10,615 nucleotides of DNA, from contig JBBIJB010000041.1 of NCBI GenBank assembly GCA_037446215.1, positions 1 to 10,615 on the forward strand. Reading direction: 5' to 3'. Origin of the DNA: Armatimonadota bacterium (lineage in GTDB: Bacteria; Sysuimicrobiota; Sysuimicrobiia; Sysuimicrobiales; Humicultoraceae). Shown one piece after another: positions 1 through 10,615 of this stretch. Made by a program: the position numbers and the translations under genes. Under the pieces are notes generated by a model. It saw only the letters and a program-made list of their open reading frames with translations. It was not told where the DNA came from and searched no databases. How positions within the stretch are numbered: the first letter of the stretch is position 1; every line of letters begins with the position of its first letter.

Positions 1-15
1 ACACGGCAGGTCGCT

Positions 16-23
16 GGGGAGGG
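16..23 (+). promoter_or_regulatory. Shine-Dalgarno site of first ompH
   Basis: GGGGAGGG ending 6 nt upstream of ATG at 30. Confidence 0.7.
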
Positions 24-29
24 TATGCG

Positions 30-479
30 ATGAAGGTAGATGCACGGAAGCTGGCCATAGTGGCCGGCCTCGCTCTGATCATCGTGGTCGGGGCCGGACT
101 GCTTCTGCGTCAGGCGCCAGTACTGGGTCAGTCCTTCTCCGTCGGGTACGTGGATATGCAGCGGGCACTGGATAGCCACCCCCGGAAGGTCAACTCGGAG
201 CGCGCGCTGCAGGAGTTCTTCCAGGCCAAGCAGCGGGAGTTCCAGGAGAAGAGCAAGGGGATGACGGCGTTCCAGCGGCAGGAGCTCGATCGCAAGCTGC
301 AGCAGGAGATCCTCGACAGGCGGAACACGCTCCTGGGAGGGCTCGACAAGGAGCTGCGCGCCGCGGTCGAGAGCGTGGCCAAGGACTCCGGGATGTCGGT
401 CGTGCTCGACCGGTCGGTGGTTCTCTACGGCGGTACCGACCTGACCGAAGCCGTCATCAAGCAGATCAAGGGAAGGTAG
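30..479 (+). CDS. skp: Skp/OmpH family periplasmic chaperone (149 aa)
   Basis: N-terminal hydrophobic signal/TM segment; OmpH N-motif VGYVDMQRALDSHP; helical Q/E/K-rich middle; C-motif AVESVAKDSGMSVVLDRSVVLYGGTDLTEAVIKQI; good RBS. Confidence 0.9.
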   Translation: MKVDARKLAIVAGLALIIVVGAGLLLRQAPVLGQSFSVGYVDMQRALDSHPRKVNSERALQEFFQAKQREFQEKSKGMTAFQRQELDRKLQQEILDRRNTLLGGLDKELRAAVESVAKDSGMSVVLDRSVVLYGGTDLTEAVIKQIKGR

Positions 480-480
480 C

Positions 481-1617
481 ATGCGGCGCACCCTCGCCGC
501 CTGTGCCATCCTGGCCGCGACCGCCGTGCTGGCGGGTTGCCGGCCACAGGGGGCCTCCCAGCCAATACCCTCACCGTCGCCGGTCTCCGTGGAGACACCT
601 GCGGGTTACAGCGTGGCCAGGGTGGACGTGGGCGAGGCGCTCAAGGCCCACAGGCGGTGGCCCGAACTGGAGGCGCTCAACAAGAAGATGGCGGCTCTAG
701 AGGCTCGTCTCGGATCCCCGCTTCCCCCGCCGGAGGTGCCCGACCTGGGCGCCGCGCTCGATGCGGAGCTGAAGGCGGAGGCGGAGCGTCTCCAGGCCCT
801 CTACAGGGGCGAGATGAAGCTGCTCGAGGAGCAGGCCAAGCAGCGCATGGAGGCGTTCGCAAACGACATCAGGGCCGAGAACGAGGCCAAGATCGCCGAC
901 AGGCACAGGGCGATAAACGCCGAGTTGCAGAGGGCCGTGGACGGCAAGAGGGACGAGCTCCAGAAGGAGCTGGAGCGGTTCGAGCTTGCGGCGATGGCCG
1001 AGTACCGGATCCCGCTCCTCAACCTCCGTCTCAAGGGAGACGTTGTGGGCCTGGCCAACGAGGAAGAGGCCAAGCGGATCACCGCTGAGGCCGAGCGATT
1101 CACCACGGAGCGGGACGGCAAGATCCGGGCCAAGTCCCAGTCGCTCGAGAAGGCGTTCCAGGAGTTCCAGCAGGCCAGGGTCAGCGAGGCCGAGGCCCAG
1201 CTGAAGACGATGGGGACGTCACTCAACGAGGATGCCGAGAAGCGCGTAGCGGCCAGGCAGCAGGAGATCCAGGCCGAGATGAAGGCCGCGGTCAAGTCCC
1301 GCGAAGAGGCGTTCCAGCGGGCGATGGAGGAGAAGAAGAAGATCCTCGCCGGTGGCGCCGAGGCGCAGATGAGGTCTCTGCAGGAGCGCTACCTCAGGCG
1401 GGTCCAGTCAGAGGCGGGGCGCTTCCAGCAGGAGCTCGGCGAGGTGGCTGAGCAGCGCTTCAGGTTGGAGTACAGCATGATCGCGGATGTCAGGATCGAG
1501 GTGGCCACGATCGCCCAGGAGCGGAGGTTCGACCTGGTGCTGTCACGGGCCGTCGCGGCCCCGGGCGCCGCCGATCTGACCAAGGATGTCATCGCCCGGC
1601 TCCGGGGATCCCAGTAG
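481..1617 (+). CDS. Extended Skp/OmpH-like lipoprotein with long coiled-coil insertion (378 aa)
   Basis: Lipobox LAGC (Cys20); OmpH-like N-motif VARVDVGEALKAH and C-motif EVATIAQERRFDLVL...DLTKDVIARL flank ~275 aa of mostly E/A/K/R/Q-rich helical sequence; starts 1 nt after upstream stop. Confidence 0.75.
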   Translation: MRRTLAACAILAATAVLAGCRPQGASQPIPSPSPVSVETPAGYSVARVDVGEALKAHRRWPELEALNKKMAALEARLGSPLPPPEVPDLGAALDAELKAEAERLQALYRGEMKLLEEQAKQRMEAFANDIRAENEAKIADRHRAINAELQRAVDGKRDELQKELERFELAAMAEYRIPLLNLRLKGDVVGLANEEEAKRITAEAERFTTERDGKIRAKSQSLEKAFQEFQQARVSEAEAQLKTMGTSLNEDAEKRVAARQQEIQAEMKAAVKSREEAFQRAMEEKKKILAGGAEAQMRSLQERYLRRVQSEAGRFQQELGEVAEQRFRLEYSMIADVRIEVATIAQERRFDLVLSRAVAAPGAADLTKDVIARLRGSQ

Positions 1618-1665
1618 CCCGGCGGTAGCGGACTCTCAGATGCCTACAGGTGGTGGAGTGTTGGA

Positions 1666-2091
1666 ATGAAGACGGTCAGGAAGACCCTGCTCCTGCTAGT
1701 GCCAGCGCTGCTGTTGCTCACGGTCGCGGGCTGTACCGCCGGTCGAGTCGGGCTGGTTGACAACCAGCGCATCCTCGGCGAGAGCGCCATGGCCCTCCGG
1801 TACCAGAAGGAGCTGGACGACCGCGAGCGCGCGATGGCCGCCGATCTGCAGCTGCTCGTCTCCCAGCTATCGAGGGAGGACCTCGAAGCCCGCCGGGTTC
1901 AGTACCTCCGCGAGCTGCAGGGGCTGCGCGCCGAGCTGGACACGATACTGAACCGAGAGGTCAGGGCCGCCATCCAGCAGGTCGCGAAAGAGAAGCGGCT
2001 GCGAGGCGTCATCGTCAAGGGTCCCGTCGTGTACGGCAGGCAGGGTGCCGTCGTCGACATCACCCAGGATGTGATAGACCGGCTGAAGTAG
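1666..2091 (+). CDS. skp: Skp/OmpH family lipoprotein (141 aa)
   Basis: Lipobox VAGC (Cys23); VGLVDNQRIL N-motif; AIQQVAKEKRLRGVI...DITQDVIDRLK C-motif; GGTGGAG upstream. Confidence 0.85.
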   Translation: MKTVRKTLLLLVPALLLLTVAGCTAGRVGLVDNQRILGESAMALRYQKELDDRERAMAADLQLLVSQLSREDLEARRVQYLRELQGLRAELDTILNREVRAAIQQVAKEKRLRGVIVKGPVVYGRQGAVVDITQDVIDRLK

Positions 2092-2118
2092 CCCTTGCCG
2101 GACGGTCGAGGGCGCCCG

Positions 2119-3159
2119 ATGAGACTCGCGCAGCTCGCAGAGATCGCGCGCGCCGAACTCCTCGGCACCGGTGACGTCGAGATCCGATCGGTCACCGACC
2201 TGGAGGACGCGCGGCCGGACTCCATAGTGATGATTGCCGACGCCCGCCGCCTCCACGACGCGGAGGCCTCACCCGCGGGCGCGCTCCTGGTAGGCGCCAC
2301 TCTATCTCCTGTCGCCAAGCCCGCCCTTAGGGCCGCGAATCTCAGGGCCGCTTTTGCCCGTCTTTTGGGCGCGCTTGCCGATGAGGCGCCCTCCTGGACG
2401 GGCATCCACCCGAGTGCCGTGGTGGCTCCCGACGCGGAGATAGGGCCGGGAGCGGCGCTGTCCGCGCTCGTGGCCGTCGAGCAGGGAGCTCGGATCGGGG
2501 AGAGGAGCCGCGTCATGGCGGGTACCGTCATCGGGGCCCGTTCGGCCATCGGCGCAGACTGCCTAATCTACCCGAACGTGACCATCTACCCCAACACCGT
2601 GATAGGCGATCGGGTGACGATCCACAGCGGATCGGTCATCGGCAGCGACGGCTTCGGCTACGCGACCGAGGACGGGATCCACGTCAAGATCCCTCACGTG
2701 GGGAGGGTGGTGATCGAGGACGACGTCGAGATAGGGGCCTGCGTGACCGTGGACCGCGCAACCCTGGGAGAGACGCGCATAGGCCGCGGGACGAAGATCG
2801 ACAACCTGGTACAGGTGGCCCACAATGTGAATATCGGCGAAGGGGTGTTCGTGGTCTCGCTCACGGGGATCTCGGGCAGCGTCTCCGTGGGGTCGGGAGC
2901 GATCCTTGCGGGCCAGGCCGGAGTCGCGGACCACGTCAGCGTGGGTGCACGGGCAAGGGTGCTGGGCAGGGCCGGTGTGACCCGAGACATCCCCGAGGGC
3001 GCGACCGTCTCAGGGTTCCCCGCCCGAGACCACCGCGAGGAGTTGCGCGTGATGGCGGCGATGCGCCGCCTGCCGGAGCTGCTCGAGCGGGTGCAGGCGC
3101 TGGAGTCAAGGCTCTCTGGCACGCCGCGCCGCGGCCGGCGCAGGCCCGGCGGAACATGA
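2119..3159 (+). CDS. lpxD: UDP-3-O-(3-hydroxyacyl)glucosamine N-acyltransferase LpxD
   Basis: N-terminal uridine-binding domain (MRLAQLAE...), hexapeptide repeats, [31 protein letters not shown] with catalytic His, C-terminal helix [10 protein letters not shown]. Start moved from TTG 2095 to ATG 2119 (GAGG upstream). Confidence 0.95.
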
Positions 3160-4952
3160 TCCGCGCCCTCTCGCTCTTCCTGGCGGCTCTCCTCGCGGCG
3201 GCCGCCGCGCAAGGGGCGGCCGCGCCTCCCTCGCATGCCCAATCCGGAGATGTGGTCGTCAGGGCGCTGCCCGGCGGCGGGGGCGGTGCCGAGATGCTGA
3301 TCCGCGGCAGGCCCGCGATGAAGCTGTCCGGGCCGGACGCGCTGCGCCGCCTTCGGCTCGCCGCGGGTAGGCTGACGCCGCTGCCGCTCAAGCCCGTGAA
3401 GGTGGCCGGCGAACTCCGCCCAGGCGCGGCGCACCTCACGGTGGATGGCGCGGTGGTGCTGACCCTGCTTCCCGATGACGCGAAGCGCTCAGGCGAGACG
3501 CTGCGGGGGATGGCGGCGAGGATGGCGCGCACGCTCGCGGCGTCTCTCGTGCCTCCGCCGCTTCTGGCCGCCCCCGGGGCCGTCGTGCTCTCGGTGGGCG
3601 GCACCGCAACCGTGCTGATCACGGCCTCCACGCCCGGCGCCACTACCGTGGGGGCCTTCGACAGGCAGGTAGTCGACGTCGCCAGGGCCGGAGACCTCCT
3701 CACGATCACGGGGATCAGGGTGGGCAGCACGGTCATCCGGCTCGCCCAGGGCAAGCACTCGGCTCAGGTCGCGGTCTCCGTCCGTCCTCCCGCAGGCGTG
3801 GTCCCGGAGTCGGTCGAGGTCTCGGTCACGGGTGCGCCGGCTCCGATCGAGTTGATGCGCGAGGCGGTTAGGCGGCGCCTTCAAGACGCGGTAAGGCTTG
3901 AGCCCGGCGCCTCGCTGGAGATAGGCGAGATCTCCCTGGAAGGGCCCCTTCCCCAGGGTGGCACCGCCTCTGCCAGGGTCAACGTGGGCGTGCGCAGTCC
4001 GTTCGCCGGCCCCGTGCATCGGTCGGTGGAGGTCCGCGTGGCCAACCTGCCCGTGGCGCTTGCCGAGCCCGATCTGCTCCTGGTCAGCAACAGGCCGGAG
4101 GTCATAACCGACAGCGGCCTCCTGTTCCATGAGACGCTCGACCGGGAGAAGTCGGCGCGCCTTCTCTACCACCACATGAACGGCGGCGAGGGGAAGGCGC
4201 GGGTCCTCAAGATCACCCTAGCCAACCCTTCGGGGTTCCGCGTCCTGGTGCACTACGCCAGCGGCATAGCCGGGCCCTCGCCCGACCCCGTGTTCGTCGG
4301 GTTCTCCTCAACCGCCAGGTTCCTCGAGAGGCTGGTCAATGGGCGGGGATACGTCGTCGAGGTCGCTCCTCGCGGCGCCGTGACCTTCAACGCCTACACG
4401 TTGGCGCCAAACGCGCTGGTCTCCGGGCTGATGCAGTTCCAGGTCATAGAGGGAGGGCCGGTGGAGCTGAGCGTGCATGTACGGCTCCCGTGGCTGCTGG
4501 ATCGCACGGTGACCACCGACCTCGGGCCCTGGGCCTTCCCGCATCCGCGGGGGACCTTTCCGGGGGCGCCCGTCGAGGTGGTCCGGGAGCTGCGCGCCGG
4601 TGAGCCGGCGCCCGTTGCCGACCTCGGCATCATGTCCGAGGCGCGCGACGTCCGGACCGGTGAGTCCCTGGTCGGCGACTACGGGATCCTGTACCGGCTG
4701 AGGCTCCGCGTCACCAACCCCACCGACCGTGAGGCCACCGTCTCGCTGGTCGCGCACGCCGCCGGGGGACTCGCCCGCGGCCTGTTCTACGTGGACAGAG
4801 AGCCGGTCGACATAGGGCTCCTCAGGCCCAGGGAGGAGCGCGTCGTGGGGGTCTTCGCGATACCCGCGGGGGCGGCGCGCGAGCTCCTGATCGTGACGAT
4901 GCCGGTGGCCGGATCGTACTACCCGGTGCGGCTCTCGCTGAGGCCCAGATGA
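3156..4952 (+). CDS. Uncharacterised secreted multidomain protein (598 aa): Ig-like segment plus C-terminal DUF3370-like region
   Basis: Ala/Leu-rich Sec signal peptide; ATGA overlaps at both ends; GC-rich third positions in this frame; motifs [19 protein letters not shown] and GDYGILY. The ORF is solid but the function is unknown. Confidence 0.8.
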
Positions 4953-5797
4953 CAGCCGTCGGGGTGCAGCGGACGATCACGCAAGCGGTTACCGTGGCCG
5001 GCACCGGGCTGCACTCCGGCGAGCACGCCACCGTCCGGCTGCTGCCCGCCCCGCCGTCCTCCGGGATTACCTTCCGCAGGACGGATCGGCCCGGCCTCCC
5101 TACGGTCCGGGCAAGCCTCGACGAGGTGGTGGCGACCGATAGGAGCGTGGTGCTCGGGGAGGGGGCGCGCATCGCCACGGTGGAGCACCTGATGTCGGCG
5201 GCGCGGGGTCTCGGAGTCGACAACCTGACGGTGGAGCTCGAGGGCGGGGAGCTGCCCTGCGGAGACGGCAGCGCGACGATCTACGTTGAGGCACTGCTCC
5301 GCGGCGGCCTCGTAGAGCAGGACGCGCCGCGCAGCCCCATAGTGGTCGGGTCGACGGCCTGGGCCGAGAGCGGCCCGTCCATCGTGGCGGCGTTCCCATC
5401 CGACGAGTTCCGCGTCACCTACGTGGCGACCGTGGATGGAACCGCCACGGCCCCGCAGATCGCCCACTTTCGGTCCTCGACGGAGGAGTATGCCTCTCAG
5501 ATAGCCCCGGCCCGCACCTGGGGCCGCGCCTCCGACGCCGACTCGCTTCGGGCCAGGGGGCTTGCACTCGGCGCCTCGCTGTCGACGGCCCTGGTCATAG
5601 GCCCGGACGGCTTCGTAAACGAGCCCCGGTTTCCCAACGAGGTGGCCCGCCACAAGGTCCTTGACATCATGGGCGACCTGGCACTGCTCGGCAGGCCGTT
5701 GCTCGGCCACATCGTGGCCGTCAGGGGAGGGCATGCCCTCCACCTAGCGCTGGCCCGCGTGATCGCCGCGAGGTTTGGAGGCGCCGATGGAGCCTAG
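4949..5797 (+). CDS. lpxC: UDP-3-O-acyl-N-acetylglucosamine deacetylase LpxC
   Basis: QRTI...GTGLHSG, TVEHLMSA, E.P..DGSA, IAPART, RFPNE.ARHKVLDIMGDL (Zn ligands), GGHALH; alternative GTG start at 4964. Confidence 0.95.
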   Translation: MTAVGVQRTITQAVTVAGTGLHSGEHATVRLLPAPPSSGITFRRTDRPGLPTVRASLDEVVATDRSVVLGEGARIATVEHLMSAARGLGVDNLTVELEGGELPCGDGSATIYVEALLRGGLVEQDAPRSPIVVGSTAWAESGPSIVAAFPSDEFRVTYVATVDGTATAPQIAHFRSSTEEYASQIAPARTWGRASDADSLRARGLALGASLSTALVIGPDGFVNEPRFPNEVARHKVLDIMGDLALLGRPLLGHIVAVRGGHALHLALARVIAARFGGADGA

Positions 5798-6284
5798 CCC
5801 CGCCCTGTGGGACGTAGAAGCGATCCAGAGGGTGATCCCGCACCGCTATCCCTTCCTCATGGTGGACCGGATAGTAGAGCTCGACCCGGGCAGGAGCATC
5901 ACCGGCGTGAAGAACGTGACAATCAACGAGCCCTACTTCGCGGGGCACATCCCCGGGCACCCCGTCATGCCCGGAGTGCTCCTGGTGGAGGCGATGGCGC
6001 AGGTCGGCGCCTGCCTGGTCCTGAACCATCCCGACCTGCACGGCCGGCTCGCCTATTTCGGGGCGATCGACCAGGCGAGGTTCAGGCGCAGGGTGGTGCC
6101 TGGAGACCAGCTCACGATACGGGTCGAGTTGCTACGGCTCCGGGGACGGTTGATCAGGGTCAGGGCCGAGGCCCGCGTCGGCGACGAGGTCGCGGCGGAG
6201 GGCACGCTGACGTTCTTCTTCGCCGAGAGCGGCCGGGCGGACCAGGCAGACGGGAACGGGAGGGAGAACGGTGCAGAGCCCTAG
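5787..6284 (+). CDS. fabZ: 3-hydroxyacyl-ACP dehydratase FabZ
   Basis: IPHRYPFLMVDRI, KNVTINEPYFAGH.PGHPVMPGVLLVEAMAQ, ARFRRRVVPGDQL; ATG 5787 preceded by GGAGG (5777-5781). Confidence 0.95.
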   Translation: MEPSPALWDVEAIQRVIPHRYPFLMVDRIVELDPGRSITGVKNVTINEPYFAGHIPGHPVMPGVLLVEAMAQVGACLVLNHPDLHGRLAYFGAIDQARFRRRVVPGDQLTIRVELLRLRGRLIRVRAEARVGDEVAAEGTLTFFFAESGRADQADGNGRENGAEP

Positions 6285-7101
6285 GCAGGTGCCCGCAGGC
6301 CCTGCAGTCCATCCGACCGCGGTCATCGCCCCCAGCGCGCGCCTCGAGGAGGGTGCCAGCGTGGGACCCTGTGCCGTGATCGGAGCGGACGTCATGGTCG
6401 GAAGCGGCACCACGATCGGACCCCACTCCGTGGTTCACGAAGATGTCACGATAGGCCGCGGCAACGCGATCGCCGCGCATGTGGTCATCGGCGGCCCCCC
6501 GCAGGACCGCGCCTACCGGGGTGAGCGCACGCGCGTGGTGATCGGCGACAACAACGTGTTCAGCGAGTTCGCCAGCGTGGACCGAGCGACCGGCGAGGGG
6601 CTCGAAACCTACATCGGCAGCGGCACCTACATTATGTCCGGAGTCAAGATCAGCCACAACTGCCGCGTGGAGGACGGCGCCATCGTCGTCAGCGGCTCGC
6701 AGATCGGCGGTTGGGCGCACATCGGGGAGAAGGCCTACGTCGGTGGGATCTGCGGGGTCCACCAGTTCGTGCGCATCGGCCGCCTGGTGATGGTGGCAGG
6801 GCTCTCGGCCGTTAGGCAGGACGTCCCACCCTACCTGCTGGTCGGCGGCTTCCAGACCCGCGCCTTTGGACTCAACAGGGTCGGACTCCAGCGCCACGGT
6901 ATCCCCCAATCCGACCGGAAGGCGCTGAGGAGGGTGTTCCGCGCGTTCTTCCAGATGGGCCTGCCCGCCGAAGAGGCGTTGCGCCTGGTCGAACAGGAGG
7001 CGCAGTCGTGCGAGCCGGCCCGCCACTTCCTTGAGTTCGTGCGGGAGGCACGCACGCGCAAGCGGGGTATCGTGAGATGGCAGGCTCAGACAGAGCCGTA
7101 G
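6271..7101 (+). CDS. lpxA: Acyl-ACP:UDP-N-acetylglucosamine O-acyltransferase LpxA (divergent active site)
   Basis: VHPTAVI hexapeptide start, GGPPQD, HQFVRIG, QDVPPY, GLNRVGLQR, C-terminal helical domain ending RGIVR; located after fabZ; GTG start with GGGAG upstream. Confidence 0.92.
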   Translation: MQSPRQVPAGPAVHPTAVIAPSARLEEGASVGPCAVIGADVMVGSGTTIGPHSVVHEDVTIGRGNAIAAHVVIGGPPQDRAYRGERTRVVIGDNNVFSEFASVDRATGEGLETYIGSGTYIMSGVKISHNCRVEDGAIVVSGSQIGGWAHIGEKAYVGGICGVHQFVRIGRLVMVAGLSAVRQDVPPYLLVGGFQTRAFGLNRVGLQRHGIPQSDRKALRRVFRAFFQMGLPAEEALRLVEQEAQSCEPARHFLEFVREARTRKRGIVRWQAQTEP

Positions 7102-7913
7102 GCCTGCTGGCCGGCAGTGGAGCGTTCCCCGAGGTGATCGCCGAGGCGGTCAAGGCGCGGGGGCAGCAGCTCGTCTGCGTGCAGGTTGCGGGACAGTCCG
7201 CCGTGCTCTCAGGGTTGGCCGACCACTACCGCCTCTGCGGGCCGGGCGCGCTGAGCGAGGTCGTCGCGACTTTCCTGACGCACCGCGTCACAGGGCTGCT
7301 GGTAGCGGGCCAGTTCCCTCGCGCCGAGCTTCTTGCCGAGGGCGACGCCCTGCGCGAGAGGCTGATGCAGACCGCGCCCGACCGGTGCGACGGCACGCTG
7401 TTCAACTCCCTTGCCGCGCTCCTGGCCGAGCATGGGATCAACCTCCTCGACCAGGCTCACTACGTGGGGGAGCTCCTGGCCCCGCCGGGGGTGATCACCT
7501 CGCGCGCGCCCACACCGGAGGAGACCGCGGACCTGGAGTTCGGACGATCGGTCGCGAGGCGCCTGGCCGACCTGGACGTCGGCCAAACCGTCGTGCTCAG
7601 ACGGGGAGTGATCCTCGCCGTCGAGGCCGCAGAGGGAACCGACCTGACCATCAGGCGCGGCGGGGCGATGGCCCGGGGCGTGGTCGTGGTGAAGGCCAGC
7701 CGCAACAACCAGGATCCCAAGTTCGACATCCCGGCCGTCGGGCCGGAGACAGTAGCCGTCATGCGCGAGGTCGGCGCCTCCGCGCTGGGTGTCGACGCCC
7801 GCCGGACGCTGCTCCTCCAGCGCGAGCGCCTCGCCGCATCCGCGGATCAGGCCGGGATCACGATCGTCGCAGCCGAAGCCCCGCCCCTGGGCACGCCGCT
7901 CAGTGTCCCCTGA
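7077..7913 (+). CDS. lpxI: UDP-2,3-diacylglucosamine pyrophosphatase LpxI (DUF1009)
   Basis: VGLLAGSGAFP, LDVGQTVV, LAVEAAEGTD.TIRR, VK.S..QDPKFDIPAVGPET; lies between lpxA and lpxB. Confidence 0.92.
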   Translation: MAGSDRAVGLLAGSGAFPEVIAEAVKARGQQLVCVQVAGQSAVLSGLADHYRLCGPGALSEVVATFLTHRVTGLLVAGQFPRAELLAEGDALRERLMQTAPDRCDGTLFNSLAALLAEHGINLLDQAHYVGELLAPPGVITSRAPTPEETADLEFGRSVARRLADLDVGQTVVLRRGVILAVEAAEGTDLTIRRGGAMARGVVVVKASRNNQDPKFDIPAVGPETVAVMREVGASALGVDARRTLLLQRERLAASADQAGITIVAAEAPPLGTPLSVP

Positions 7914-9078
7914 TAGGGGTTCCCGGCGCGTCTTCCTCGTGGCCGGTGAGGTCTCGGGCGACCTGCACGGCGCCGAGCTGGCCCGTGAGATCGCAGCACT
8001 GGCCCCAGGAGTGCGCCTGGAGGGAGTAGGGGGGGCCCGGATGGCCGCGGCGGGCGTGAGGCTCGTCGAGGAGAGCGGCGAGTGGGGAATAATGGGTTGG
8101 GTCGAGGCCGCCAGGCACGCCCGACCGTTCCTGCGCAGGTTGTCCAGCCTGACCTCCTACCTCCTCGCCGACCCGCCGGAGTTGCTGGTCCCGATAGACT
8201 TCCCGGGCTTCAATCTGGCTCTCCTGCGACGGGTGGGCGCCAGGATCCGGTCGGTCTACTACGTCCCGCCCATGGTGTCGGTGCGGCGCGGGAGCCGCGC
8301 GCGGCGGGTTGCCTCGCTGGGCGCCCGGCTGCTCGCAATCTTCCCCTTCGAGGCGGAGGCCTATCGGCGTGCCGGCGCGGACGTGGCATTCGTGGGCCAT
8401 CCTGCGGCAGGGCTGCGGGAAGAGGTGGAGCCGTGCGACTCCGTTCGCGCGCGCCTCGGCGTGCCCGAAGGCGCCGAGGTGGCGGGCCTGTTCCCGGGGA
8501 GCCGGAGGCAGGAGCTGGACAGCCTGCTGGGCCCGATGCTGGGCACCGCCCGTGCCATCTCCGCCGAGCGCCCCGGCACCCTCTTCCTCCTGGCCGTTGC
8601 CTCTCCACTCCTCCGGGGCCAGATCGAGGAAGCCGTGGCCTCTTCAGGCGTGCGCGTCGCGCTGGTCGACCGCTCGCTGGACGTGCTCGCGGCCAGCGAC
8701 GTGGTGCTGATCGCTTCCGGAACCGCGGCCGTCGAGGCGATGGTCCTGGGGGTGCCTATGGTCGTGGCGTACAGCGTGTCGCCGCTGAACTGGCTGATTG
8801 CGCGCCTCGCCCTCAAGACCAGGTTCGCCTCGATCCCCAACATACTCGCCGGGGAGGCGTTGGTGCCGGAGCTGCTGCAGGGGAGGGCCACACCCGCATC
8901 GATGAGCGGCGAGGTCCTGGCACTCCTGCGTAGTCCCTCGGCACGCGAGGCGATGCGTGCCCGGCTGCTGCGCCTCTCCGGGGAGTTGGGTTCGCCCGGC
9001 GCCGCACGGCGGGCCGCGCTCGAGGTGCTGGCCGCGCTCGGCGCGCCTGCCTTGAAGCCCGGCGGTGCAATCGAGTAA
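7903..9078 (+). CDS. lpxB: Lipid-A-disaccharide synthase LpxB
   Basis: AGEVSGDLHG, GVGGARM, IMGWVE, IDFPGFN, IFPFE, FVGHP, FPGSRRQE, ASGTAAVE, PMVVAY, SIPNILAG..LVPELLQ. Start inferred at GTG 7903 overlapping lpxI (exact start uncertain). Confidence 0.93.
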   Translation: MSPDRGSRRVFLVAGEVSGDLHGAELAREIAALAPGVRLEGVGGARMAAAGVRLVEESGEWGIMGWVEAARHARPFLRRLSSLTSYLLADPPELLVPIDFPGFNLALLRRVGARIRSVYYVPPMVSVRRGSRARRVASLGARLLAIFPFEAEAYRRAGADVAFVGHPAAGLREEVEPCDSVRARLGVPEGAEVAGLFPGSRRQELDSLLGPMLGTARAISAERPGTLFLLAVASPLLRGQIEEAVASSGVRVALVDRSLDVLAASDVVLIASGTAAVEAMVLGVPMVVAYSVSPLNWLIARLALKTRFASIPNILAGEALVPELLQGRATPASMSGEVLALLRSPSAREAMRARLLRLSGELGSPGAARRAALEVLAALGAPALKPGGAIE

Positions 9079-9099
9079 GGTGGTCTAGAGGACAGCGAC

Positions 9100-9735
9100 G
9101 TGACGGGTAATAGGGCTGAAAGCCGCAGGGGGTCTATCTCTCCGAGGGCAGGGCGCTGGATGGGCGCGGCGCTCGCCGCCGGCGTGGTCGCCCTGGTCAT
9201 CAGGACGCTGCTTCAGGCGCCCGCGCCGACGCCCGCCGGAACAGGATCGCCGCCGGGGAGCCAGGCCTCGACGCCCAGGCCTTCCCCGACCGCGACGATC
9301 GCCAGGGTGCCCCCCGTGGAGGTCAAGCGTACCGCCATCTCGACGGTTGACTCCGAGGGCCGCCTCCAGTGGGAGATCCGGGCCGAGACGGCCTCGGTGG
9401 ACAGCCTCTCGAGGACGGCCACCCTGACCCGCGTCGAGGGCACCTACTTCCACGAGGGCGGGCCCGCGGTCACCTTCGCGGCCCCGAAGGGCACCTTCTT
9501 CGTGGCGACCCGCAACATGACCCTCTCCGACGGCGTCAGGGCTCGCGCCGCCGGAGGGGAGACGCTTGAGGCAAAGGTCGTCCGCTGGGATCCGGGAAGG
9601 GCTCAGATAGAGGCCACCGGCTCGGTCGTGCTCCGGCAGGGAGGTATGACCGTCCGGGCGGACCGCCTCATGACAGACACATCCCTGCGCCTCTCCAGCA
9701 TGAGCGGGAACGTCCGTGTCACCGTGGATCGGTAG
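9100..9735 (+). CDS. lptC: LPS export periplasmic protein LptC
   Basis: Single N-terminal hydrophobic anchor, Pro/Ser/Thr linker, GRLQWEIRAE motif, four beta-jellyroll units; GTG start with AGAGGA upstream (alternative ATG 9160); precedes lptA-like and lptB-like genes. Confidence 0.82.
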   Translation: MTGNRAESRRGSISPRAGRWMGAALAAGVVALVIRTLLQAPAPTPAGTGSPPGSQASTPRPSPTATIARVPPVEVKRTAISTVDSEGRLQWEIRAETASVDSLSRTATLTRVEGTYFHEGGPAVTFAAPKGTFFVATRNMTLSDGVRARAAGGETLEAKVVRWDPGRAQIEATGSVVLRQGGMTVRADRLMTDTSLRLSSMSGNVRVTVDR

Positions 9736-10561
9736 CCGCCCCTCGGCGGCGGGCGCAGCCCTGGCGGCACTCCTCGTCCTGGCCTTCCTCTGTGCCCCGG
9801 CCGCCGGAGCGCCCGCTCCGACGCAGACCCGCTCCGATTCCATCGAGATCAGCGGCGCCACGCTGCTCGAGTACAGCGATGCCACGGGCAGGTGGACGGC
9901 CGAGGGAAGCCCAGTCGCGGTGACGCGAGGGCAGACGCGCCTCACCGCGCCCCGGATAGTCTATGAGCAGCGGGCAGGGACGATCACCGCCAGCGGCGGC
10001 GCGGCGCTGTCGGAGCCCGGCCTCTCGGTGCGCGCCGACGAGGCGCGCCTCCGCCTATCCGACGACACGGTACGCGCCCGGGGCAGCGTGCGGGTGATCT
10101 CCTCCAGGGATGGCCCGCCGATCGAGCTAGCCGCGGCCGAGGTCGAGGGGATGCTGCGGGCCCGAAGGTTCGCGGCGGGCGGGGCCGTCTCGCTCTCTAG
10201 AGGGGAGTGGAGGCTCTCCGGCGAGAGGCTCGACTACGACGACGCGGCGCGCGTGGCGCGGGTCACCGGGGGGCCGACGGCAGGCTTCGGCGAGGCGGTG
10301 ATGACAGCGGACGCCATCACCCTCTACGTCGCCGAGGAAGTGGCGAGGGGAGAGGGAGCGGTCAGGTTGCGGCGGGGCGAGCTCCTGGGTACTGCGCGCC
10401 GCATCGACATCGTGTTGAGGGAGGGAAGGGCGGTCCTGATGGGGAACGCACGGGTTGAGCGCGGCGCAGACCAAGTCTCCGCCGAGGAGATCGAGGTCGC
10501 CCTCGACGGGTCGTGGGTCTCAGCCCGCGGGGGGTCGCGCCTCATCCTCACGCCGCCCTAA
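9716..10561 (+). CDS. lptA: LptA/OstA-family beta-jellyroll periplasmic protein, about twice normal length (281 aa)
   Basis: Signal peptide, then about 8 repeats of a ~29-aa unit with pattern LxA.xIxY....xxAxGxVxxxxG; located between lptC and lptB. Confidence 0.78.
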   Translation: MSPWIGSRPSAAGAALAALLVLAFLCAPAAGAPAPTQTRSDSIEISGATLLEYSDATGRWTAEGSPVAVTRGQTRLTAPRIVYEQRAGTITASGGAALSEPGLSVRADEARLRLSDDTVRARGSVRVISSRDGPPIELAAAEVEGMLRARRFAAGGAVSLSRGEWRLSGERLDYDDAARVARVTGGPTAGFGEAVMTADAITLYVAEEVARGEGAVRLRRGELLGTARRIDIVLREGRAVLMGNARVERGADQVSAEEIEVALDGSWVSARGGSRLILTPP

Positions 10562-10572
10562 GCCGCCAAGAG

Positions 10573-10615
10573 ATGCTTGCGACGAGAGGTCTCTACAAGC
10601 AGTACGGTGGACGCA
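10573..10615 (+). CDS. lptB: 5' fragment of ABC ATPase, probably LPS export ATPase LptB (truncated by window edge)
   Basis: ATG 10573 gives MLATRGLYKQYGGR, matching the LptB-type start L...L.K.Y..R; synteny lptC-lptA-lptB; only 14 codons visible. Confidence 0.65.
   Translation, partial: MLATRGLYKQYGGR

Follow-up and report, generated by a model that had tools for sequence, protein, structure and literature searches.

RESULTS

The stretch of DNA analyzed here (the window) comprises 10,615 nucleotides, positions 1 to 10,615 of the forward strand of contig JBBIJB010000041.1 (assembly GCA_037446215.1), from a bacterium of the phylum CSP1-3 (Sysuimicrobiota). It carries a lipid A cluster that lies entirely on the plus strand in the order skp x3-lpxD-X-lpxC-fabZ-lpxA-lpxI-lpxB-lptC-lptA. 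Our subject is the gene that we call X (3156-4952, ATG start), which encodes a 598-residue exported-type protein and stands between lpxD (UDP-3-O-acylglucosamine N-acyltransferase, 2095-3159; Pfam Hexapep 2e-26, LpxD 2.2e-10) and lpxC (4949-5797; Pfam LpxC 3.1e-85). As a preliminary description of this DNA had reported, the sequence reads ATGA both where the lpxD stop overlaps the X start (3156-3159) and where the X stop overlaps the lpxC start (4949-4952).

X is a real gene. A word-indexed protein search returned 71 homologues at E<=1e-3, all of them unnamed or "hypothetical" and labeled as Armatimonadota or "bacterium" metagenome-assembled genomes. When a profile of 20 family members (alignment A1) was run against 1.84 billion cluster representatives, 2808 matched at E<=1e-3, of which 1147 also passed E<=1e-10 and 638 passed E<=1e-30, with near-full-length alignments for most of the best 150. 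This many homologues argue that X is not a chance open reading frame (ORF) of GC-rich DNA. Word-based searches with the full protein, with a C-domain profile, and with the most distant member (P0273, 351 residues) found solely unnamed or "hypothetical" proteins, two cluster look-ups contributed organism labels alone, and language-model look-alikes fell in Vulcanimicrobiota and Bacillota clusters, which we treat as leads only. N-terminal modules differ by lineage, being Big_2, T2SS-T3SS_pil_N, or PKD-like. The X family is large, uncharacterized, and spread over several Terrabacterial phyla.

The domain plan of X was drawn from its translation and from an AlphaFold2 model built on A1 (mean predicted local distance difference test score [pLDDT] 87.2, predicted template modeling score [pTM] 0.71). 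The protein begins with a signal-peptide-like N-terminus (residues 1-30, 3156-3245), which starts with basic residues, continues with a hydrophobic stretch, and offers Ala-rich sites as candidates for cleavage; the model has a helix at residues 2-20 and low pLDDT at 14-30. There is no cysteine in the whole protein and hence no lipobox. A signal-peptide-like N-terminus recurs in 20 of 20 aligned members, which have 0-2 cysteines each and no conserved lipobox. Judged by these features, X is a Sec-exported soluble protein rather than a lipoprotein, and the earlier proposal of export holds. Behind the signal peptide follow an N-module with a beta3-alpha-beta3-alpha-alpha fold (residues 32-131, 3249-3548), an Ig-like domain that structure comparison identifies as Big_2-type (residues 133-211, 3552-3788), a small alpha/beta domain (residues 219-297, 3810-4046), and a conserved, distantly DUF3370-like core of two beta-sandwiches (residues 300-598, 4053-4949). 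In the model, the sandwiches span residues ~300-445 (with a helix at 378-394) and ~466-598. The preliminary description had anticipated the signal peptide, the N-terminal alpha/beta domain, the Ig segment, and a C-terminal region of ~290 residues, but its third domain, taken to be all-beta, proved to be alpha/beta. That small domain is kept in shorter members from families f4, f5, and f7, which lack the first two modules and whose matches start at profile positions ~206-223.

Folded alone on A2, an alignment of 27 C-domain sequences from two phyla that are 25-70% identical to the window's sequence, the C-domain (residues 300-598) reached a pLDDT of 90.4 and a pTM of 0.88. A2 contains 19 invariant columns, grouped in four motifs across both sandwiches. 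They include N312, P314, E315, R335, L337, H339, H340, N357, and N521, as well as a G(D/N)YG loop at 507-510 and a P-x-x-G-S-x-Y-P element near the C-terminus. The motifs quoted in the preliminary description are all present in the translation of X: LLVSNRPE (308-315), GLLF (321-324), RLLYHHMN (335-342), and GDYGILY (507-513). The S-N-R-P-E motif (residues 311-315, 4086-4100) holds A2 invariant columns N17, P19, and E20. The R-L-L-Y-H-H-M-N motif (4158-4181) holds R40, L42, H44, and H45, with N342 nearly invariant, and the G-D-Y-G-I-L-Y motif (4674-4694) matches DUF3370 profile positions ~299-331. Such invariance makes it plausible that SNxPE/HH marks a metal or ligand site, and the invariant polar residues of the double sandwich as a whole may form a ligand or catalytic site.

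Comparison with known proteins identified no characterized relative of X, and the clear structural match was limited to Big_2 (PF02368). No Pfam or NCBIfam family scored above its cut-off, sequence searches of the PDB gave no significant match (phmmer best E 0.38, profile best E 1.3), and Foldseek with the whole model and with the C-domain returned just multi-sandwich matches at template modeling (TM) scores <=0.25. The Ig domain has the Big_2-type fold of the S-layer protein SbsC and the lambda tail-tube Ig domain, so structure comparison upheld the likeness first noticed in the sequence. X itself has no match to the Big_2 Pfam model at E<=1 (cut-off 22.8 bits); among its relatives, one of 20 aligned members matches at E 0.26 and the distant P0110 passes with 32.6 bits. 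Big_2 is one of four modules of X and is uninformative on function. The remaining matches were generic nine-stranded beta-sandwiches: the SID1/SIDT ectodomain, the collagen-binding (PPC) domain of collagenase, carbohydrate-binding modules, and the C-terminal domain of C. perfringens enterotoxin. With Big_2 and generic sandwiches as the yield of the fold searches on the model, X did not turn out to belong to a characterized family of unrelated function.

The preliminary description had also likened the C-terminal motifs to DUF3370 (PF11850), which is, like the X family, uncharacterized, and to copper-amine-oxidase-like proteins of Firmicutes, for which the one hint is the language-model lead to unnamed Bacillota clusters. 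The G(D/N)YG...NPT stretch of the X family does match DUF3370 profile positions ~292-332. Of 20 full-length members, 12 show this local match, as do 7 of 17 distant representatives and 22 of 27 C-domain sequences (E<=1, best 8.7e-7). However, X stays below the gathering cut-off of 25 bits, the full protein scoring 15.7 bits and the C-domain alone 17.7, and the best printed score of any relative is 22.9 bits. Moreover, ~30 of the 422 profile positions align in every match with a printed range, and DUF3370 lacks the N-module, Big_2, and alpha/beta domains of X. Among 14 control genomes, DUF3370 matched in Synechococcus elongatus alone; one Atlas cluster carries it on 14% of members, which is a lead only, and a full-text literature search for "DUF3370" found no occurrence. 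The resemblance appears to be a real but weak lead rather than a sign of membership, and X is probably a distant, architecturally new variant within an uncharacterized DUF3370-like domain superfamily.

With the periplasmic parts of lipopolysaccharide (LPS) transport and outer membrane (OM) assembly (LptA, LptC, LptE, Skp, and the Bam accessories), X has an operon and a compartment in common. By Pfam, X has no match to the LptA/LptC/LptD_N families (PF03968, PF06835), although the lptC-like and lptA-like ORFs of the cluster do. A relation between X and LptA was considered and dropped after hhalign of A2 against the alignment of the cluster's LptA-like protein (A3) gave a probability of 0.3%, and no Lpt-type chain was among the best 50 matches of each fold search, which barely covered the first sandwich. 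These results agree with the earlier statement that X lies outside the Lpx, Lpt, and Bam families.

The N-module of X also occurs in other proteins. In most relatives, extra ORFs match X profile positions ~29-140, and 11 of 12 such loci gave an N-module ORF. Nine of these are M48 peptidases (sources G008, G009, G019, G026, G028, G029, G033, G036, and G000:C45; loci L053-L061 and L064), and two are stand-alone proteins of ~145 residues with signal peptides (L062, L063). The module sits at the C-terminus of the nine peptidases, each of which has a hydrophobic segment upstream of its M48 domain and eight of which contain HExxH; no Pfam family covers this ~100-residue stretch of the peptidases. 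Its presence on M48 peptidases and on stand-alone exported proteins suggests an extracytoplasmic module that has been joined to different envelope proteins in this phylum, and it may serve as a docking device. The same 11 loci would also suit a role for X alongside exported M48 peptidases, as their partner, adaptor, or regulated substrate, with the N-module recruiting both in envelope protein quality control. We regard this as highly improbable because a common module means a common address or ligand rather than an interaction. In addition, the f4, f5, and f7 members lack the module and two of them (G033, G036) still lie beside lpxC, and no M48 gene adjoins X at any examined locus.

To place X among relatives of the window, we drew on a sample of 41 CSP1-3 genomes (the window's own and 40 relatives) from one order and seven families. 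This phylum holds Candidatus Fervidifonticultor, Candidatus Geohabitans tengchongensis, and Candidatus Sysuimicrobium calidum, with Armatimonadota as a neighboring outgroup (PMC11604079); the main text of that paper does not mention lipopolysaccharide, outer membrane, lipid A, diderm, Gram-negative, or lpx. X had a strong match (E <= 1e-50) in 32 of the 41 genomes and LpxC was found in 40. In 27 of the 32 carriers, including two unpublished genomes (G015 and G024), X and lpxC share a strand and are immediate neighbors, with X upstream. When the window's proteins were compared by tblastn with 28 CSP1-3-type loci, which overlap with the 41 counted genomes and are not independent of them, lpxC came after X in all 28, and lpxD precedes X in all 23 loci with upstream flank. 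The loci mostly share the order skp1-3 ... lpxA-lpxI-lpxB-lptC-lptA.

The close packing of the junctions is also widespread. A 4-nt RTGA overlap joins X to lpxC at 20 of the 28 related loci. At L038 the sequence is likewise ATGA, with an lpxC start that was not called by our script, and seven loci have gaps of 7-29 nt. At the junction of lpxD and X, 14 of the 23 related loci that include lpxD have a start candidate at -4. Three families of the order retain both the insertion and the coupling, as do loci whose X is 39-63% identical to that of the window. Because X is translationally coupled to lpxD and lpxC, its production is expected to accompany that of the lipid A enzymes.

Six genomes of the order have no detected C-domain, and in all of them lpxD is joined directly to lpxC behind the same three skp genes. 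These genomes are 91-98% complete; three (G013, G020, and G021) come from the same family as the window and three (G025, G031, and G037) from family f2, and G020 shares its genus with an X carrier, G011. Since these genomes keep lpxD-lpxC without X, X is dispensable for retention of the lipid A genes. It is a cleanly present-or-absent insert in the lipid A operon. The preliminary description had proposed a factor tied to the lipid A enzymes; the coupling in CSP1-3 bears this out, but the tie is not obligatory. X is also less widespread than LpxC in both CSP1-3 and Armatimonadota, and so does not have the distribution of a core lipid A or LPS component.

For Armatimonadota, a paper on diderm Firmicutes (PMC5007114) reports LPS core genes in Armatimonadetes and describes hypothetical genes in a conserved OM locus; the part of it available contains nothing on the X family. 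Exactly one full-length X homologue (E<=1e-20) was present in 41 of 61 Armatimonadota genomes. LpxC was present in 59 of the 61, among them all 20 that have no X match. X lies beside lpxC in none of the 41 carriers, and G094 alone has both on one contig, 1.2 Mb apart. The survey of envelope-gene linkage called for earlier therefore has two answers: X is fixed between lpxD and lpxC in CSP1-3, but this position is not found in Armatimonadota. On one Armatimonadia-labeled contig, an ECF (extracytoplasmic function) sigma factor, BamA, two unknown ORFs, LpxD, and X follow one another in this order, while the lpxC of the same genome sits behind another ORF on a separate contig.

In 13 of the 41 Armatimonadota carriers, a gene with a DUF4985 domain directly follows X on the same strand, and two more have one within 3.5 kb. 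The four such neighbors scanned by Pfam are glycosidase-like proteins of GHL10+DUF4985 architecture. Of the four GHL10 neighbors translated, three start with a plain signal peptide, and in the one from L040 a long basic stretch precedes the hydrophobic segment; at L040 and L045, the X stop overlaps the start of the neighbor. GHL10 (PF02638) is a gene neighbor of X and not a relative. It also matches in the E. coli control genome, and the characterized example of the family is DigH/YddW of E. coli, a denuded-glycan hydrolase. The available portion of a paper on DigH (PMC12288456) contains no terms that refer to the X family. As separate observations on Armatimonadota loci, a DUF3417/glycogen-phosphorylase-type gene lies nearby at L041, L047, and L048 (L048 being judged by ORF sizes alone), and ABC-2 transporter genes are common to L041 and L048.

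Beyond these two phyla, a megaplasmid of Deinococcus sp. QL22 encodes a 587-residue hypothetical protein with a weak PKD-like match and a C-domain. This protein is a true distant homologue of X by hhalign (probability 98.3%, E 2e-14, 270 columns). With a homologue here and in 41 of 61 Armatimonadota genomes, the family is not lineage-specific, contrary to what had first been supposed. Around the Deinococcus gene (L081, 5131-6894), a LysM protein and an M23 metallopeptidase are ~3-5 kb away, and upstream are two hypothetical genes, one with a weak glycosyltransferase-4 match. A second Deinococcus plasmid match (H2, 73% query cover) was left unused; it lies opposite small annotated ORFs.

These distributions bear on the idea that X is an LPS-transport or OM-assembly accessory of diderm Terrabacteria, a functional stand-in for LptE or the Bam lipoproteins. 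The translationally coupled cluster of three skp genes, lpxD/C/A/I/B, fabZ, lptC, and lptA would suit such a role, as would BamA and LpxD upstream of the homologue on the Armatimonadia-labeled contig. The N-module in common with exported M48 peptidases is consistent with it as well, given that the E. coli M48 peptidase BepA works at BAM/LptD. However, the X-less CSP1-3 genomes, one of them congeneric with a carrier, keep an identical skp1-3-lpxD-lpxC arrangement, no Armatimonadota copy stands beside lpxC although LpxC is nearly universal there, a third of those genomes (20 of 61) have LpxC and no X match, and the profile comparison with the LptA-like protein was negative. Deinococcus, which lacks LPS, has a homologue. 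We therefore consider this role quite unlikely, with the dispensability of X, the absence of lpx linkage in Armatimonadota, and the Deinococcus homologue weakening a place in the core machinery the most.

Dispensability and an LPS-less host would be easier to reconcile with a non-catalytic structural or scaffolding protein, in which a chain of Ig and sandwich domains spaces, tethers, or decorates the OM or the wall in the manner of S-layer proteins. The modular architecture and the variable N-terminal modules also favor such a protein. Still, 19 invariant columns, mostly polar or Gly/Pro, kept across two phyla at 25-30% identity would be rare in a purely structural protein, X is single-copy and ~600 residues long, and Pfam detected no SLH or other wall-anchoring domain. 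On balance, a structural role seems rather unlikely.

The remaining genes of the window are those expected around lipid A synthesis, with some features of their own. Three tandem Skp/OmpH paralogues (3-479, 481-1617, and 1666-2091; Pfam OmpH 5.4e-16, 1.2e-09, and 3.1e-11) lead the cluster, the first being open at the window's 5' end. In the middle one (378 residues), the OmpH match is confined to residues 249-374, leaving an N-terminal extension of ~250 residues without a Pfam match. The order of the trio is kept in related loci with enough upstream flank and in all six X-less loci. Downstream of lpxC, Pfam and NCBIfam assign fabZ (5775-6284), lpxA (6271-7101), lpxI (7077-7913), lpxB (7789-9078), an lptC-like ORF (9100-9735), and an lptA-like ORF (9716-10561). 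The cluster carries lpxI (LpxI_N/LpxI_C) and not lpxH. Translation of lpxB probably begins further downstream than its longest ORF would have it, because that ORF (GTG at 7789) shares 125 nt with lpxI; its Pfam match begins at residue 48. The LptA-like ORF (281 residues) has two LptD_N/LptA stretches and a weak LptC match (E 1.2e-4), and may be a double jellyroll.

Two further points concern related clusters. By tblastn, fabZ was not found between lpxC and lpxA in L002, L004, L005, L009, L010, L012, L014, L016, L019, and L021-L025, in contrast to the window and other loci, which makes it a second variable insert of the cluster. At L010/L022 (G022:C212), the lpxC match comes in two pieces (1708-2061 and 2171-2557), with Pfam LpxC split at model positions 110/145. 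A frameshift or an insertion could account for this, as could faulty assembly of that genome.

DISCUSSION

We propose, at a probability of roughly 0.35, that X acts in the periplasm as an accessory protein, binding or modifying a glycan of the envelope, and is not a core Lpx, Lpt, or Bam part. It would reach the periplasm or the cell surface through Sec export as a soluble protein, and its working part would be the C-terminal ~300 residues, two packed beta-sandwiches with invariant polar residues. Among these, N312, E315, R335, H339, H340, N357, the G(D/N)YG loop, and N521 could form a candidate binding or catalytic pocket, whose ligand would be a sugar-bearing envelope polymer such as the LPS/lipid A backbone, the peptidoglycan glycan, or another envelope polysaccharide. 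We infer an envelope glycan as the ligand because X is co-expressed with lipid A genes in CSP1-3 and has an exported GHL10-type neighbor in Armatimonadota. The Big_2 Ig domain and the small alpha/beta domain may act as spacers, and the N-module may dock X at a common envelope site. In CSP1-3, the gene stands as an insertion between lpxD and lpxC and is translationally coupled to both.

Several observations weigh against this proposal. The first sandwich (residues 300-445), which holds SNxPE and HH, has essentially no structural match and was barely covered by the fold searches. The supposedly invariant site is not universal, given that the Deinococcus homologue has Asp at N312 and Tyr at H339. 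Linkage to envelope genes is incomplete even within the order of the window, where five genomes (families f4 and f7) have X copies away from lpxC that lack the first two modules. For five such loci, in four of these genomes (none in G030), Pfam scans of the neighbors gave two of proB/proA type; at the remaining three, the neighbors scanned included no envelope family. In Armatimonadota, 26 of 41 carriers have no DUF4985 gene within 3.5 kb of X, and at L041, L046, L047, and L048 a TPR gene of ~280 residues without a signal peptide follows X. Nor does X depend on GHL10, which was found in none of the eight genomes from the genus of the window. We also considered a functional pairing of X with the TPR proteins and dropped it, as these have no signal peptide. 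At the two proB/proA-type loci (L066 and L070, in G032 and G035 of family f4), a short X lies directly upstream of an amino acid kinase+PUA gene, followed by an aldehyde dehydrogenase.

Such neighborhoods raise the alternative that X is a secreted factor that binds or degrades glycans or proteins, for instance in nutrient acquisition, and that landed by chance in a strongly expressed operon and is held there by its overlaps. Its neighbors elsewhere vary (proB/proA, MutL/MutS, MnmE, an ABC transporter), its presence or absence between lpxD and lpxC is clean, and one copy sits on a Deinococcus megaplasmid. Yet the retention of both insertion and coupling across three families, in copies that have diverged to 39-63% identity, speaks against it, and X has independent links to exported envelope-type genes in Armatimonadota. 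We thus think a chance insertion very unlikely.

The glycan-directed accessory that we favor has a bolder form. X could be the first member to be noticed of a periplasmic enzyme family found throughout Terrabacteria, in which a double beta-sandwich would serve as a new catalytic fold and a Glu/His/His/Asn site would trim or modify an envelope glycan; we offer this as a long shot. If it were true, the substrate in CSP1-3 could be the sugar backbone of lipid A/LPS, making X a new periplasmic LPS-modifying enzyme inside the lipid A operon, and in Armatimonadota, the substrate could pass to or from the adjacent GHL10 glycosidase.

To our knowledge, envelope biogenesis in double-membraned Terrabacteria, including CSP1-3, Armatimonadota, and Deinococcota, is poorly known, and for several envelope parts of Proteobacteria we know of no counterparts in diderm Terrabacteria. 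The accessory status of X and the restriction of its lpx linkage to one lineage guard against over-reading it as a missing Lpt or Bam component. Nevertheless, an unannotated exported family with invariant polar motifs, fixed in the lipid A operon of a phylum, is a testable candidate for an envelope function that has not yet been described.

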